Assembly: GCF_009931435.1 (NCBI RefSeq)
Contig: NZ_CP043414.1
Length of the DNA: 64,000 nucleotides
Strand: one strand, 5' to 3'
Source: Escherichia coli
GTDB taxonomy: Bacteria > Pseudomonadota > Gammaproteobacteria > Enterobacterales > Enterobacteriaceae
A program made the translations under genes and the position numbers. Within the stretch, counting starts at the first letter, position 1. The number at the start of each line of letters is the position of its first letter. Shown here in pieces: positions 1,908 to 43,030 of the stretch. The notes below the pieces were generated by a model. The model saw only the letters and a list, made by a program, of their open reading frames with translations. It was not told the DNA's origin and did no database searches.

Positions 1908-3281
1908 TTAGTGATTTTCAGCCAGCTGACGATCGTGGCGGCGTTTAAACATCCAGCCAATCAACAGCAGAACAATCCACGCGAAACCAACGTACAGCGA
2001 GATACGTGTGTCCGGATGATAACCAATCAATCCGATAATAAAGAGCAGGAAAATCAAACCGCCGATGGTCGTTGCTACCCCACCTGGTACTTTAAATTTC
2101 AGTGCCTTCACTTCTTCTGGCGGCAAACGGCGACGGAAAGCAATTTGCGACAGCAGGATCATAATCCATACCCACACCGTGGCGAAGGTTGCCAGCGAAG
2201 CGATCACCAGGAAGACATTTTCCGGCATGATGTAGTTCAGATATACCGCAAACAATAGCGCGGTAGTCATCACCAGCACCGTGACCCACGGAATACCGCG
2301 ACGCGAGGTTTTGCTGAAAATTTTCGGCGCGCTACCCTGCTCTGCCATGCCGTGAAGCATACGACCTACGCCAAATACGTCACTGTTAATTGCTGACAGC
2401 GAAGCGGTCAGCACAACAAAGTTAAGAATGCTGGCGGCAAAGGTAATGCCCATATGCTGGAACGTCAGCACGAACGGGCTACCGGCAGTGCCAACCTGAT
2501 TCCACGGATAGATAGACATAATGACGAACAGCGTACCGACGTAGAACACCAGAATACGCATCGGCACGGAGTTAATCGCACGCGGAATCGATTTTTCCGG
2601 ATCTTTCGCTTCCCCGGCGGTAATACCGATAATTTCGATCCCGCCGTAAGCAAACATTACCATTTGCAGCGACATCACCATGCCAAGCCAGCCGTTGCTG
2701 AAGAAGCCGCCGTTGCTCCAAAGATTATGGATACCGGTCGGTTGCCCGCCGTTGCCAATCCCCCAGATGATGATGCCGAAACCGGCGACAATCATGATAA
2801 TGATGGTGGCGACTTTAAAGAACGAAAACCAGAACTCAAGCTCACCAAATACTTTCACGCTCATCAGGTTTACGGCGCAAATGATCAGCACCACGCTCAG
2901 TACCCAAATCCAGTGCGGCACCGTCGGGAACCAGACGCCCATATAGATACCGAAAGCGGTCACATCGGCGATGGCGACAATAAGGATTTCAAAGCAGTAG
3001 GTCCAGCCAGTGATATAACCTGCCAGTGGACCGAGGTTTTCCTGCGCATAGCGCGAGAAAGAGCTGGCTGCCGGGTTATGTACCGACATTTCCCCCAGCG
3101 CACGCATAATGATATACGCCGCGATACCACCGATAATATAGGCCAACAACACGCTCGGACCGGCCATTTTGATGGCGTCTGCCGAACCGTAAAACAACCC
3201 GGTGCCAATTGCTGAACCCAGTGCCATAAAGCGTATGTGTCGGGTACTTAGCCCACGCTTTAGCTTGTTCTTACTTTCCAT
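1908..3281 (-). CDS. proY: Proline-specific permease ProY (APC family)
   Basis: Track ORF 1908..3284 ([27 protein letters not shown]...); the first M is a TTG, the ATG at 3281 gives the 457-aa MESKNK... form. Position downstream of brnQ as in E. coli. Confidence 0.9.
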
Positions 3282-3356
3282 CAATTCCTAACCCATCAAC
3301 ACAATAAAAAACCACGGGGCATCGCAGCCCCGTGGTTAAAACAAATATTCAGTGAT

Positions 3357-4676
3357 TTAGTGAGCGCTGGAGGTCACCTGACGACCTGCCGCGCGATCCC
3401 AAATAATGGCCAGAACCACCATCACCACTGTTGGCATTAACCACGCAAGACCTTGTTCGGCCAGCGGTAAACGCTGCGCCCAGGACGGTAAGATATCGCT
3501 GAATGCAGATGCTTTGATCCCGTCGAGAATACCAAAAAGCAGGCTGATAAACATCGGCGGAGCAATCACGCGGGACGAATTATGCCACCATGAGCGTGTA
3601 AAACTTAATACAACCAGTGCGATACACGGCGGATAAATAGCGGTCAGCACCGGTACGGAGATCTGAATCAGCTGGCTCAAGCCGAGGTTAGACACCACCA
3701 TCGAGAAGCCGCCGAGGATAAACACCAGCGTACGATAGGAGAGCGGTACGTACTGAGCAAAGAATTCTGCACAAGCACAGGTCAGGCCAACCGCCGTGAC
3801 CAGGCAGGCGATAAAGATTAACGCCGCCAGCAGGAAGCTACCGCCGCCGCCAAAGGTGTGCTGAACGTAGGCATGCAGAATAGCCGCACCGTTTGCAGAC
3901 TGATCGACCAGCGACGCGCTGTCTGAACCCAGACGGAACAGCGCCAGGTACAGCAGAGTCAGACCGACACCCGCCATCAGGCCAGCCCAGACAGTATAAC
4001 GGGTCAGCAGACGCGCTTCGGTAACGCCGCGAGAACGCGCCGCATTAACAATAACGATACCAAACACCATCGCGCCCAGCGTATCCATGGTCAGATAGCC
4101 ATTAACGAAGCCGTTAGAAAACGCGGCGTTTTGATAAGCCTCAGTCGCCGTGCTGATAGAGCCCGCTGGCCAGACAATTGCCGCAACAGACAGGATGACC
4201 AGCGCGATAATTTTCAGCGGTGCCAGGAAGTTACCGACGGTATCCAGCAGTTTGCCCGGATAGAGCGAAACCAGAATAACGATAGCGAAATAGACCAGGC
4301 TGTAGATAAACAGCGGCAGCGCGGAGTCACCCGTCAGGGGCGCAATGCCCACTTCAAAGGAGACGGTGGCTGTACGCGGCGTGGCGAACAACGGCCCTAC
4401 AGCCAGGTAGCAAACCGTTGCCAGCAGTACGCCAGCGACTTTACCAATTGGCGTGCTGAGGCTGTCAACACCGCCGCCAACTTTCGCCAGCGCCACCACC
4501 GTTAATACCGGCAGGCCAACGGCAGTAATGAGGAAGCCGAATGCCGCAGTCCAGACGTGTTCGCCTGCCTGCAAGCCGACCATTGGAGGGAAAATGATGT
4601 TACCTGCGCCGACGAACAACGCAAATGTCATAAAGCCCAGAGCGATGATATCGCGCGATCTTAATTGATGGGTCAT
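3357..4676 (-). CDS. brnQ: Branched-chain amino acid transport carrier BrnQ
   Basis: 439-aa polytopic membrane protein [31 protein letters not shown]...; synteny phoR-brnQ-proY. Confidence 0.93.
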
Positions 4677-5024
4677 AAATCATACTGCCTGTGGATGTGG
4701 TGTTGTAACGTTAAATTTTTGTGCCAATCCCTGGGGATGATACAGCGGTATATTTAAACAATTTTAGCGGGAAATACTCCCAACCAGGCGCGGCGAAGAA
4801 TAGTTTTTCGATTTACCGCGTGAATGCAGTCAGTATGACAGCACCTGAAGCGCAATTTAAACGCTTATAACGTTTTAAAGCAAGAAGGGATCTAAAAACC
4901 AGAGGTATATAGCGATAAGAAATCACCAACCAGTATAAAACACTATTTCCGTGAAAAAGACATGGCTAATCATGCGAACAAAAAATCACCAACCGTTGTA
5001 AAATCTAACGCCCGTATTTTGACT

Positions 5025-5056
5025 GCAAAGAAAATAAGCCAGCATCAGCTGGCTTA
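5025..5056 (-). terminator. Rho-independent terminator downstream of phoR
   Basis: On the minus strand: hairpin AAGCCAGCTGATGCTGGCTT followed by ATTTTCTTTGC, located just 3' of the phoR stop. Confidence 0.65.
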
Positions 5057-5082
5057 TGGCAATAAAAGATGACAAAGGCGGA

Positions 5083-6378
5083 TTATTCGCTGTTTTTGGC
5101 AATTAAACGTTCCGGGATAACAAAACTGAAACGCGTACCTTTTCCCACCGCACTCTCAATATGCAGGCGACTTTCGTGATGATTCACCGCATGTTTCACG
5201 ATCGCTAACCCTAATCCGCTACCGCCAGTTTGTCGGGAACGTGCTTTATCAACGCGATAAAAACGCTCGGTCAGGCGCGGAATATGCTCCGGTGCGATGC
5301 CCGGTCCATTATCTTCAACGCTAAATTCGGCACCGTGCGGCACTCGCTGCCAGCGTACGGTGATATGCGTACCTTCCGGCGTATGATTCACGGCGTTATA
5401 AACCAGGTTCGAAATCGCGCTGCGAAGTTGGTCTTCGTTGCCAGACACCTTGAGGTCGTTATCTATTTCAAAGGTAAATGTCTGTTTCTGCTGGCTCAGA
5501 GTCTGGGCCTCACGCTCAACGACCCGCAGCATCATCGGCACATCAACCTTTTCATTAAGCAACTGCGTTGGCGCGGCTTCTATTTTTGACAGCGTCAGTA
5601 ACTGCTTCACCAGCCCTTCCATCCGCTGGGTCTGCTCGCGCATGGTGTGCAACGCTTTTTCACGTACCGCACCTTGCAGTGGTTGCTCATCCATCATCTC
5701 CAGGTAACCCTGTAACACTGTCAATGGCGTACGCAACTCATGGCTCACGTTGGCAAAAAAGTTACGCCGCGCCCCTTCCAGTTGATGCATTTGCGTGACA
5801 TCACGCGCCACCATCAGCAACTGTTTGTGGGTATAAGGCATGACGCGAATTTCCAGATGCCGCCCGGTATTGAGCACCAGATTGAGCGGGCGAGAAAAAT
5901 CACGCGTTTTCAGATATTGCGTAAACTCCGGATAACGAAGCAGATTAAGGATGTTCTGCCCGTTATCTTCCGGCCAGCGCAAACCAAGAATTTGTTGCGC
6001 CAGACCATTACACCAGAAAATACCGCCCTCTTCCGTGGTCAGCACCACCGCATCAGGCAGCGACTCCGCGCCGCTACGAAAGCGTTTAATCAGATTGCCC
6101 AGTTCGCGGCGACGTTTTTTATTACGCAGCTGCATCTGGTGTAAGCCGTATAGCAGCGGTTCCCAGCTACCACGCCCCGGAGGCGGGGTCATACTGCGAT
6201 CCACCCACAGCCACCATGAAAGGCGCAACAAATTCCAAAAATGCCAGATAAGCAGTCCTGTTACCGATGCCAGCAAAAACCAAGGCAGGTAACCAAAAAA
6301 TGCACCCAGGATGAAAGCCGGGAGGCAGCAAAGTAGCAGCTCCAGCACCAGCCTTTTCCACGACAGCCGTTCCAGCAC
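5083..6378 (-). CDS. phoR: Phosphate regulon sensor histidine kinase PhoR
   Basis: 431 aa, [18 protein letters not shown]...; H-box [11 protein letters not shown] and ATP-binding GLGLAIVK motifs; directly downstream of phoB. Confidence 0.95.
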
Positions 6379-6435: not shown

Positions 6436-7125
6436 TTAAAAGCGGGTTGAAAAACGATATCCTGTACCGCGTACGGTCTGCACCATGCGGTCATGTCCGC
6501 CGGGCTCCAGTGCCTTACGCAGGCGACGAATGTGAACATCGACCGTGCGGTCTTCCACATATACGTTGGTTCCCCAGACGTGGTTTAACAGCTGCTCGCG
6601 GCTGTACACGCGCTCGGGATGCGTCATAAAAAAGTGCAGCAGTTTAAATTCTGTCGGCCCCATCTCCAGCGGTTCTTCGCCCGCCATCACCCGGTGAGAT
6701 GTCGGGTCGAGACTGAGCCCCTGCATCTCGATCACCTCTTCCACCGCCATTGGCGAAATACGGCGCATTACCGCTTTGATTCGCGCCACCAGTTCCTTCG
6801 GCGAAAACGGCTTGGTGATATAGTCATCCGCACCGGTTTCAAGGCCGCGCACGCGATCTTCTTCTTCCCCTCTGGCGGTCAGCATCACCACTGGAATATC
6901 TCGGGTCATCGATTCGCGCTTGAGGTGTTTGATGAACTGGATACCGGAGCCGCCAGGTAACATCCAGTCAAGGAGAATTAAATCCGGCCAGGGTTCATTC
7001 AGTTGATTCACAGCACTGTCATAATCTTCCGCTTCGACCGGCTGAAAGCCATTTTGTTCGAGCACGAAGCAGACCATTTCGCGAATTGGAGCTTCATCTT
7101 CTACGACCAGAATACGTCTCGCCAT
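6436..7125 (-). CDS. phoB: Phosphate regulon response regulator PhoB (OmpR family)
   Basis: 229 aa, [18 protein letters not shown]...; receiver domain plus winged-helix C-terminus; Pho box in its own promoter. Confidence 0.95.
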
Positions 7126-8517: not shown

Positions 8518-11500
8518 AAATTCTCAGCCTGCGCCTGAAAAACCTGAACTCGTTAAAAGGCGAATGGAAGATTGATTTCACCCGCGAGCCGTTCGCCAGC
8601 AATGGGCTGTTTGCGATTACCGGCCCAACCGGCGCGGGGAAAACCACCCTGCTGGATGCCATTTGCCTGGCGCTGTATCACGAAACTCCGCGCCTTTCTA
8701 ACGTTTCACAATCGCAAAATGATCTAATGACCCGCGATACCGCCGAATGTCTGGCGGAAGTGGAGTTTGAAGTCAAAGGTGAAGCGTACCGTGCCTTCTG
8801 GAGCCAGAATCGGGCGCGTAACCAGCCAGACGGTAATTTGCAGGTGCCGCGCGTAGAGCTGGCGCGCTGTACCGATGGCAAAATTCTCGCTGACAAAGTG
8901 AAAGATAAGCTGGAACTGACGGCGACGTTAACCGGACTGGATTATGGGCGTTTCACCCGTTCGATGCTGCTTTCGCAGGGGCAATTTGCTGCCTTCCTGA
9001 ATGCCAAACCAAAAGAACGCGCGGAATTGCTCGAGGAATTAACCGGCACCGAAATCTACGGGCAAATCTCTGCGATGGTCTTTGAGCAGCACAAATCGGC
9101 CCGCACTGAGCTGGAGAAACTGCAAGCGCAGGCCAGCGGCGTTGCGTTATTAGCGCCAGAACAGCTGCAATCGCTGACAGAAAGTTTGCAGGTACTCACT
9201 GTCGAAGAGAAACAGTTACTCGCCGCGCAGCAGCAAGAACAACAATCGCTAAACTGGTTAACGCGTCTGGACGAATTGCAGCAAGAAGCCAGCCGACGTC
9301 AGCAGGCATTGCAACAGGCGTTAGCCGAAGAAGAAAAAGCGCAACCTCAACTGGCGGCGCTCAGCCTGGCACAACCGGCGCGAAATCTTCGTCCGCACTG
9401 GGAACGCATCGCAGAACACACTGCGGCACTGGCGCATACTCGCCAGCAGATTGAAGAAGTAAATACTCGCTTACAGCGCACAATGGCGCTTCGTGCGAGC
9501 ATTCGCCACCACGCGGCGAAGCAGTCTGCAGAATTACAGCAGCAGCAACAAAGCCTGAATGCCTGGTTACAGGAACACGACCGCTTCCGTCAGTGGAACA
9601 ACGAACTGGCGGGTTGGCGTGCGCAATTCTCTCAACAAACCAGCGAACGCGAGCATCTGCGGCAGTGGCAGCAACAGTTAACCCATGCAGAGCAAAAACT
9701 TAATTCACTTCCGGCGATCTCGTTGACGTTAAGCGCCGATGAAGTTGCTAGCGCCCAGGCGCAACATGCTGAGCAACGCACGCTGCGTCAGCGCCTGGTC
9801 GCGCTGCATGGACAGATTGTTCCCCAACAAAAACGCCTGGCGCAATTACAGATCGCTATCCAGAATGTCACGCAAGAACAGACGCAACGTAACGCCGCAC
9901 TTAACGAAATGCGCCAGCGTTATAAAGAAAAAACGCAACAACTTGCCGATGTGAAAACCATTTGCGAGCAGGAAGCTCGTATCAAAACGCTGGAAGTTCA
10001 ACGTGCGCAGTTACAGGCGGGTCAGCCTTGCCCACTTTGTGGTTCCACCAGCCACCCGGCGGTCGAGGCGTATCAGGCGCTGGAACCGGGCGTTAATCAG
10101 GCCCGGCTATTAACGCTGGAAAACGAAGTGAAAAAGCTCGGTGAAGAAGGTGCGCCGCTACGTGGGCAACTGGACGCCTTAACGAAGCAGCTTCAGCGTG
10201 ATGAAAACGAAGCGCAAAGCCTCCGACAAGATGAGCAAGCACTTACTCAACAATGGCAAGCTGTCACGGCCAGCCTCAATATCACCTTGCAGCCACAGGA
10301 CGATATTCAACCGTGGCTGGATGCACAAGATGAGCACGAGCGCCAGCTGCGGATACTCAGCCAACGGCATGAATTACAAGGGCAGATTGCTGCGCATAAT
10401 CAACAAATTATCCAGTATCAACAGCAAATTGAACAACGCCAGCAGCAACTCTCTGCGGCATTAGCGAGTTACGCGCTGGCATTGCCACAGGAAAATGAAG
10501 AAGAGAGCTGGTTAGCGACACGTCAGCAAGAAGCGCAGAGCTGGCAACTGCGTCAGAACGAATTAACTACGCTGCAAAACCGTATTCAGCAACTGACGCC
10601 GATTCTGGATACGTTACCGCAAGGTGATGAGTTATCGCACAGCGAAGAAACAGTGGCAATGGAAAACTGGCGGCAAATTCATGAACAATGTCTCGCGTTA
10701 CAAAGCCAGCAGCAGACGTTACAGCAACAGGATGTTCTGGCGGCGCAAAGTCTGCAAAAAGCCCAGGCGCAGTTTGACACCGCGCTACAGGCCAGTGTCT
10801 TTGACGATCAACAGGCGTTCCTTGCGGCGCTAATGGATGAACAAACACTAACCCAACTGGAACAGCTCAAGCAGAATCTGGAAAACCAGCGCCGTCAGGC
10901 GCAAACGCTGGTCACTCAGACAGCTGAAACGCTGGCACAGCATCAGCAACACCGACCTGACGGCCTGGATCTCAGTGTGACGGTGGAGCAGATTCAGCAA
11001 GAGTTAGCGCAAACTCACCAAAAGTTGCGTGAAAACACCACGAGTCAGGGCGAGATTCGTCAACAGCTGAAACAGGATGCGGAAAACCGTCAGCAACAAC
11101 AAACCTTAATGCAGCAAATTGCTCAAATGACGCAGCAGGTTGAGGACTGGGGATATCTTAATTCGCTAATAGGTTCCAAAGAGGGCGATAAATTCCGCAA
11201 GTTTGCCCAGGGGCTGACGCTGGATAATTTAGTCCATCTCGCTAATCAGCAACTTACCCGGTTACACGGGCGCTATCTGTTACAGCGCAAAGCCAGCGAG
11301 GCGCTGGAAGTCGAGGTTGTTGATACCTGGCAGGCAGATGCGGTACGCGATACCCGTACCCTTTCCGGTGGCGAGAGTTTCCTCGTCAGTCTGGCGCTGG
11401 CGCTGGCGCTTTCGGATCTGGTCAGCCATAAAACGCGTATTGACTCGCTGTTCCTTGATGAAGGTTTTGGCACGCTGGATAGCGAAACGCTGGATACCGC

Positions 11501-14137: not shown

Positions 14138-15049
14138 ATGCTGTGGTTCAAAAATTTAATGGTTTACCGTCTTAGCCGCGAGATTTCGCTGCGTGCAGAA
14201 GAGATGGAAAAACAGCTAGCCTCGATGGCATTTACCCCATGCGGCAGCCAGGACATGGCGAAGATGGGCTGGGTTCCTCCGATGGGATCGCACAGCGATG
14301 CGTTAACGCACGTTGCCAATGGTCAAATTGTTATCTGCGCGCGCAAAGAAGAAAAAATCCTCCCGTCTCCGGTGATTAAACAGGCGCTGGAAGCAAAAAT
14401 CGCCAAGCTGGAAGCGGAACAGGCGCGCAAGCTGAAGAAAACCGAAAAAGATTCGCTGAAAGATGAAGTGCTGCACTCTCTTCTGCCGCGCGCTTTCAGC
14501 CGTTTCAGCCAAACCATGATGTGGATCGATACGGTAAACGGTTTGATTATGGTGGACTGCGCCAGTGCCAAAAAAGCAGAAGATACGCTGGCATTACTGC
14601 GTAAAAGCCTGGGGTCGTTACCGGTTGTACCATTGAGCATGGAAAACCCGATTGAACTGACGCTGACCGAATGGGTACGCTCTGGTAGTGCGGCACAAGG
14701 CTTCCAGCTGCTTGATGAAGCCGAACTGAAATCGTTGCTGGAAGATGGCGGCGTGATCCGCGCGAAGAAACAAGATTTGACCAGCGAAGAAATCACCAAC
14801 CACATTGAAGCAGGAAAAGTGGTGACTAAACTGGCGCTCGACTGGCAGCAGCGCATTCAGTTTGTGATGTGCGACGATGGTTCACTCAAGCGTCTGAAGT
14901 TCTGCGACGAGCTGCGCGATCAAAACGAAGATATCGACCGTGAAGATTTTGCCCAACGTTTTGATGCCGATTTCATCCTGATGACCGGTGAACTGGCAGC
15001 ATTAATCCAAAACCTGATCGAAGGATTAGGTGGCGAAGCACAACGTTAA
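14138..15049 (+). CDS. rdgC: Recombination-associated protein RdgC
   Basis: ATG at 14138 gives [16 protein letters not shown]..., 303 aa; divergent from mak as in E. coli. Confidence 0.9.
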
Positions 15050-42715: not shown

Positions 42716-43030
42716 GCATCCGCGCACGCCAGCCGGATGCGGCGTGAACGCCTTATCCGCCTACATTTCGCCCATAAACCGTAGGCATGATAAGACGCGC
42801 ATAGCGTCGCATCAGGCATCTGCGCACAACTGCCGGATGCGGCGTGAACGCCTTATCCGGCCTACATTTCGCCCATGAGCCGTAGGCATGATAAGACGCG
42901 CATAGCGTCGCATCAGGCATCTGCGCACAACTGCCGGATGCGGCGTGAACGCCTTATCCGGCCTACATTTCGCCCATGAGCCGTAGGTATGATAAGACGC
43001 GTCAGCGTCGCATCAGGCATCTGCGCACGA
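42716..43030. repeat. Tandem BIME/REP array, about 3 copies of a ~100-bp unit
   Basis: The unit ...GCCGGATGCGGCGTGAACGCCTTATCCGGCCTACATTTCGCCCATGAGCCGTAGGCATGATAAGACGCGCATAGCGTCGCATCAGGCATCTGCGCACAACT... recurs at about 42731, 42831 and 42931. Confidence 0.85.

Follow-up and report, generated by a model that had tools for sequence, protein, structure and literature searches.

The window, by which we mean the whole 64,000-nucleotide stretch of DNA that was analysed, is a piece of Escherichia coli chromosome that is reverse-complemented with respect to K-12, and its annotation places four neighbouring genes on the minus strand: proY (1908–3284), brnQ (3357–4676), phoR (5083–6378), and phoB (6436–7125). 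Since brnQ and its neighbours lie on the minus strand, this is also the regulatory sense of the phoR–brnQ spacer, and the positions given below relative to the transcription start follow it. The spacer itself, of 406 bp (4677–5082), has its K-12 orthologue between the same two genes, is richer in A+T than the window (60% vs 49%), carries no annotated feature, and is matched at 95% identity or more in 5424 of 5426 complete E. coli genomes. The original prediction, made from the letters of the window, had described a direct repeat in an AT-rich region of about 400 bp upstream of brnQ and adjoining the terminator of phoR, and this description of the setting proved accurate, the terminator hairpin having been recovered by the inverted-repeat and terminator searches; among genera its stem sequence varies while the hairpin is kept, in an alignment judged by eye. 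To our knowledge, the control region of brnQ has never been dissected before. The features that frame it are the following.

5034 to 5057, minus strand: intrinsic terminator hairpin of phoR, the upstream limit of the brnQ regulatory region
4846 to 4883, minus strand: sigma-70 promoter of brnQ, with the -35 hexamer TTGCTT at 4883–4878, a 17-nt spacer, the -10 hexamer TTAAAT at 4860–4855, and the start at A4846
4677 to 4846, minus strand: leader (5' UTR) of brnQ, 170 nt
4688 to 4705, minus strand: CA-rich CAACACCACATCCACAGG just upstream of the brnQ AUG, invariant in 80 species, the expected GcvB R1 pairing site together with the ribosome-binding site

The transcription start was placed with the help of published data, in which the brnQ start stands at position 418645 of NC_000913.2, with 54 reads and a 5' UTR of 170 nt (Kim et al. 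2012, PMC3415461, supplementary file 2); as the upstream sequence given there ends in ...GCGTTTAAATTGCGCTTCA, the start corresponds to window position 4846. The brnQ orthologue of Klebsiella pneumoniae starts at the equivalent position and has the same promoter sequence. To follow the region through the family, we used a BrnQ search of genome contigs, which yielded 80 loci from about 30 genera, and aligned their upstream regions; the most conserved block among these 80 Enterobacteriaceae is TTGCyTTAAAACGTTATAAGCGTTTAAATTGCGC (window 4850–4883, minus strand), which is nearly invariant, the 17-nt spacer included. A consensus scan of 4600–5150 picked up the phoR terminator and a single weak hairpin on the plus strand but no sigma-70-like hexamer pair, and it missed the brnQ promoter because the -35 hexamer fits at just three of six positions. 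Within the promoter spacer there is an imperfect palindrome, TTTAAAACG-N7-CGTTTAAAT, invariant in the 80 species, and the conservation of this spacer suggests an operator for a putative repressor overlapping the brnQ promoter. A GATC (Dam) site at 4890–4893, set in a CGATCCC motif at -44 to -47, adjoins the -35 hexamer on its upstream side and is at least 95% conserved in the 80 species.

The leader downstream of this start has its own conserved parts, namely invariant stretches such as GGTAAATCGAAAAACTATTCTTCGCC at 4817–4792, on either side of which the two arms of a stem may lie, with pairs that covary from C:G to U:A (UA in 14 sequences, CG in 5), a hand-drawn pairing to be read as a hint. 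RNAalifold, applied to 24 brnQ UTRs, gave no consensus structure, and the brnQ leader of the window gave no Rfam match; the leader could hold either an undescribed leader element or sites that act at the level of DNA. Just past the start, at 4825–4843 (minus strand), lies the imperfect palindrome TGCTGTCATACTGACTGCA, of the form GTCA-N3-TGAC, which is kept as CAGTC-N7-GACTG in Kluyvera and Raoultella and may represent either a 5'-terminal mRNA hairpin or an operator; its likeness to half a Pho box (CTGTCAT) is merely superficial. At the other end of the leader, the CA-rich site at the AUG fits the published targeting of brnQ by the R1 region of GcvB, brnQ being a verified Salmonella GcvB R1 target that is conserved in E. 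coli (PMC9299463). Similar CAACA-rich sites are seen in the leaders of livJ and livK.

The direct repeat lies upstream of this promoter. An exact 12-mer, AAATCACCAACC on the plus strand and GGTTGGTGATTT in the sense of brnQ, occurs at 4920–4931 and again at 4983–4994, and the longer copies read AAATCACCAACCAGTATAAAAC (4920–4941) and AAATCACCAACCGTTGTAAAATC (4983–5005), while the repeat search paired 24 nt at 4917–4940 with 24 nt at 4980–5003 at an identity of 20/24. The repeat that the original prediction reported therefore exists, although not in all of its details: the distance from start to start is 63 bp rather than 64, copy 1 begins at 4920 rather than at 4919, and the gap that had been written as a variable (N)T(N) is NNTN. 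The two copies, in the limits used here, are as follows.

4917 to 4941, brnQ sense TTTTATACTGGTTGGTGATTTCTT: copy 1 of the direct repeat, -71 to -95 from the brnQ start
4980 to 5005, brnQ sense TTTTACAACGGTTGGTGATTTTTT: copy 2 of the direct repeat, -134 to -159 from the brnQ start

Measured from the starts of the 12-mers, the copies stand at -74 to -95 and at -137 to -159, and a transcription start at 4846 thus makes them upstream regulatory DNA and not promoter elements.

How unusual such a pair is depends on the amount of sequence over which it is judged. When this spacer was simulated with a Markov-1 model, 1.0% of the simulations contained a direct repeat of 12 nt or more, and 1.3% attained the 24-nt diagonal score of the repeat; for all 64 kb of the window, the expected number of local 12-mer repeats is 0.36, at least one being present in 30% of random windows, and four were observed, one in the brnQ spacer, one in sbcC, and two in REP-like repeats. 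Given the amount of sequence surveyed, the repeat is real but only marginally above chance. The sbcC example, ACAAGATGAGCA at 10226–10237 and 10325–10336 (99 bp apart, in the coding region), serves as a chance-level comparator. The remaining two are exact direct repeats of 28 and 25 nt, GCCGGATGCGGCGTGAACGCCTTATCCG and AGCGTCGCATCAGGCATCTGCGCAC, at 42732–42859 and 42904–43028, each 100 bp apart, and in appearance they resemble REP/BIME elements. A third exact copy of AAATCACCAACC, the sole other one in the window, is found at 14790 within the coding sequence of rdgC, and an exact 16-mer, AAGAAATCACCAACCA, is common to copy 1 (4917–4932) and to rdgC (14787–14802, ..SEEITNH..); this sharing is probably coincidental, about one 16-mer pair being expected per 64-kb window.

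Within E. coli, the 96-nt stretch that spans both copies is identical in 3331 of 5423 complete genomes (61%), and K-12 and W3110 have a T at 4993 that turns copy 2 into AAATCACCAATC, an 11/12 match, so that the exact pair is not fixed in the species. In four more divergent Escherichia genomes (L002–L005: E. albertii, one genome labelled E. coli, and two Escherichia sp.), each 12-mer is changed at zero to three positions and the two copies vary independently of each other; the 12-mer cores show 16/96 differences as against 43/652 in the rest of 4847–5033 (Fisher p=0.0018), which means that in these four genomes the cores change about 2.5 times as fast as the sequence around them. Mean identity to the window among the 80 Enterobacteriaceae is distributed over the region as follows.

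4850 to 4900: promoter block, 0.90, with most columns at 95% or more
4954 to 4978, minus strand: 25-bp conserved block TTTTTTGTTCGCATGATTAGCCATG between the copies, -108 to -132, 0.82, with many columns at 95% or more
4677 to 5082: whole spacer, 0.685
4983 to 4994: core of copy 2, 0.68
4920 to 4931: core of copy 1, 0.46

No other part of the brnQ upstream region is as poorly conserved as the 12-mer cores. The similarity of the two copies in register, which is 20/24 in the window, amounts to 17/24 in other Escherichia, 10–14 in Citrobacter, and about 8, the background level, in distant genera, and in the family consensus the two copy positions have little in common except T-runs; the spacer as such is collinear, both in 34 aligned genomes from about 20 genera and in the 80-genome alignment. 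We found no purifying selection on the repeated bases, either in Escherichia or across the 80 Enterobacteriaceae, and conservation in other enterobacterial brnQ promoters, the lack of which the original prediction had named as one part of what would count against the motif, is absent for the 12-mer across these 80 loci. Upstream of livJ and livK, no motif related to AAATCACCAACC was found with up to two mismatches, the only similarity being the TTTTATACTG 10-mer near the livK promoter.

The block that lies between the copies is nearly invariant in the family and contains CATG-N6-CATG, with most of its columns 80–100% conserved across genera, and no conserved open reading frame begins there in the 80 species. 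None of the Pho box, CRP, FNR, sigma-54, IHF, PurR, and TyrR consensuses, compared informally by eye, appeared to fit the repeat or the conserved blocks.

Lrp, the regulator put forward in the original prediction, can be compared with published binding data. Genomic SELEX places an Lrp peak at W3110 position 418534, in the spacer between phoR and brnQ, and names brnQ-proY as its target operon (Shimada et al. 2015, PMC5320599, Table S1). The W3110 coordinates are 418408 for the end of phoR and 418815 for the start of brnQ, and the peak stands 126 nt past the phoR stop; from these gene coordinates it corresponds to about window position 4957 (-111), between the two copies, as a SELEX-chip measurement of in vitro binding with a resolution of about 100 bp. 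A literature search on brnQ, Lrp, and ChIP found nothing specific to E. coli brnQ, and the main text of the preprint by Kroner et al. does not mention brnQ. Scored against the 15-bp SELEX consensus YAGHAWATTWTDCTR, the region has four best positions.

4900 to 4914, minus strand, centre 4907 (-61): Lrp-like box I, CGCTATATACCTCTG in E. coli (10/15), with the family consensus CGGTATATTCTTCTG (13/15)
4931 to 4945, minus strand, centre 4938 (-92): Lrp-like box II, TAGTGTTTTATACTG (13/15), overlapping the promoter-distal third of copy 1
centre 4970 (-124), minus strand: Lrp-like match within the conserved block (11/15)
4996 to 5010, minus strand, centre 5003 (-157): weak Lrp-like box IV, CGTTAGATTTTACAA (11/15), overlapping the promoter-distal part of copy 2

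The intervals between these centres are 31, 32, and 33 bp, and the 63 bp between the copies equal two such periods. Scores of 10, 11, and 13 are reached at 2.7%, 0.65%, and 0.009% of window positions, respectively. Among the 80 species, matches of at least 12/15 occur at the aligned position of 4907 in 59 and at that of 4938 in 27, these being the two commonest positions, and the position of box IV is poorly conserved across genera. Box II overlaps the A+T-rich TTTTATACTG part of copy 1, and its conserved columns (T4945, G4943, C4933, and T4932, each 80–100%) are those of the consensus edges, T.G-N9-CT. The consensus is degenerate, and matches to it with two mismatches or fewer number 7 over the window as against 8.5 expected from shuffles, a chance level that makes the phasing argument a post hoc one. 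Taken as a whole, the suggestion of Lrp is partly supported and gains from the SELEX peak near 4957 and from boxes at 31–33 bp, whereas the 12-mer loses its standing as the determinant, being the least conserved element and absent at livJ and livK.

We therefore lean, with moderate confidence, towards an explanation in which the repeat is a by-product of a phased, degenerate array of Lrp-type boxes at -61, -92, -124, and -157, and not a specific 12-mer operator. Each copy would join the part of one box nearer the promoter (TTTTAYAMYG), box II in one case and box IV in the other, to the linker that follows it (GTTGGTGATTT). A distance of 63 bp spans two box periods, so that the copies would be equivalently placed in every second module and would face the same side of the helix. 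For the contacts, the wrapping, and the way in which brnQ is regulated, we infer the following: Lrp oligomers would bind the boxes cooperatively and wrap the DNA, and this wrapping would tune transcription of brnQ-proY to leucine and to the nutrient state, the proximal site at -61 being one that, as a guess, would suit activation. Lrp would recognize the edges of the boxes (YAG...CTR) and their A+T-rich centres, with the GGTTGGTGATTT core not read sequence-specifically, and the near-identity of the cores in most E. coli would reflect either drift within the lineage or what is left of an older similarity. Several observations count against this explanation: box I scores just 10/15 in E. coli itself; 4954–4978 exceeds typical Lrp sites by far in its conservation, which means that another factor may dominate the region; and the repeat has a local p of about 0.01, at which the cores could still serve some function specific to Escherichia.

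A serious competing account is coincidence, in which two similar T-rich stretches have come about by drift in a spacer of 60% A+T, without any sequence-dependent binding, and which we regard as less likely than the array. It draws on the expectation for local 12-mer repeats given above, on the comparable repeat in sbcC and the same 12-mer in rdgC, and on the behaviour of the cores, which outpace their surroundings in change, are not conserved across genera, and have already slipped to 11/12 in K-12; what it leaves aside is that the repeat is unusual inside the spacer (p about 0.01), that it coincides with the Lrp SELEX peak, and that its A+T-rich halves overlap consensus-like boxes of conserved position. 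The high conservation of the 25-bp block raises a different prospect, which we consider unlikely, namely that the block is the operator of a putative regulator of branched-chain amino-acid uptake, that the palindrome in the promoter perhaps belongs to the same system, and that the copies in Escherichia are symmetric accessory sites cooperating with it; such accessory sites could be for Lrp or a bending protein, for example. Very unlikely, in our judgement, is a paired operator specific to Escherichia, whereby a regulator other than Lrp would read GGTTGGTGATTT twice, at a distance of six helical turns, and form a DNA loop. That the 12-mer is exact and falls twice on one face of the helix would suit it, as would the 61% of E. 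coli genomes that keep the 96-nt stretch identical and the roughly symmetrical flanking of the conserved block (copy midpoint 4962, block centre 4966); yet the cores differ in K-12, in E. albertii, and in the cryptic Escherichia clades, with the copies changing independently, conservation outside Escherichia is lacking, and the upstream regions of livJ and livK do not contain the motif. We also know of no E. coli factor with the GGTTGGTGATTT motif.

The likeness of the copies might instead have a historical origin, as the relic of an ancient tandem duplication of a two-box module of about 63 bp, a reading that is compatible with the Lrp array and would explain where the similarity came from, but that we hold to be decidedly improbable. 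The in-register similarity does extend beyond the 24-mer (26/43, a shared ACGG included), the spacing equals two Lrp-box periods, and copy 2 of Enterobacter (TTTTATACGGTTGGTGCTTT) is close to copy 1 of E. coli; against this, all 80 loci agree in the length of the spacer and in the order of its blocks, which speaks against a recent duplication, the family-consensus positions share little except T-runs, and identity is near background outside the 24-mer. A search for the marks of a recent tandem duplication, that is, extended similarity of the units or a difference in length from relatives, found neither, the similarity decaying to 26/43. Least credible of all, to the point of being next to impossible, are duplicated or tandem promoters and an RNA or small-ORF function of the copies. 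The "duplicated promoter element" of the original prediction is unsupported, since the sole mapped start, at 4846, lies downstream of both copies, 74 nt downstream of copy 1, and since neither the copies nor the rest of 4600–5150 offered a promoter-like hexamer pair to the scan. As for a small ORF, a frame of 16 codons, MISHVFFTEIVFYTGW at 4973–4923 (minus strand), starts in the conserved block, with copy 2 supplying a Shine-Dalgarno-like GGTGAT 11 nt before the ATG and copy 1 the stop codon; the same mapped start, however, leaves it upstream of the transcript, its ATG is missing in 23 of the 80 species, and its length ranges from 2 to 53 codons. A plus-strand frame starting ATGGCTAATCATGCG was likewise set aside, its first ATG being lost in Kluyvera and Raoultella and its second standing in another frame, as judged by eye. 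An RNA function is met by the lack of an Rfam match, a scan of 4400–5400 at E<=10 having returned noise only. As far as sequence analysis allows, the promoter, small-ORF, and RNA readings are rejected.

The repeat itself matters little, the eye-catching pair being the least constrained part of the region. The useful yield of the analysis is a map of the sequence that controls brnQ, with a promoter conserved in two genera whose starts are mapped, four phased Lrp-like boxes under the published in vitro Lrp peak, a nearly invariant 25-bp block, and an invariant palindrome in the promoter spacer, and these mapped elements are concrete targets for the study of how LIV-II transport is regulated.

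Three known kinds of arrangement bear comparison with this locus. Like REP/BIME elements, the brnQ repeat is a short repeated intergenic sequence adjoining a terminator, but it is without dyad symmetry, is not G+C-rich, and occurs at one locus per genome (median); the REP-like repeats at 42.7–43.0 kb of the window look quite different from it. The looping operators of lac, gal, and ara are identical sites that lie an integral number of helical turns apart, and they are conserved and usually palindromic. The brnQ copies resemble them in being near-identical, in lying on the same face upstream of a promoter, and in their separation of 63 bp (6.0 turns), and differ from them in being non-palindromic direct repeats that change faster than their surroundings and are not shared with the other promoters examined (livJ, livK). 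Phased arrays of Lrp sites, for their part, precede Lrp-controlled promoters such as those of ilvIH, pap, gltBDF, and livJ/livK. Unlike these, the brnQ spacer has just one box at 13/15 in E. coli, the centre of the array holds a much more conserved block that is dissimilar to the Lrp consensus, and the repeated 12-mer falls mostly in the linkers and not in the boxes. Like these, it presents several degenerate, A+T-rich 15-bp boxes with YAG...CTR edges at intervals of 31–33 bp, or about three helical turns, placed upstream of the sigma-70 promoter of an amino-acid transport gene, in a spacer to which Lrp binds in vitro.
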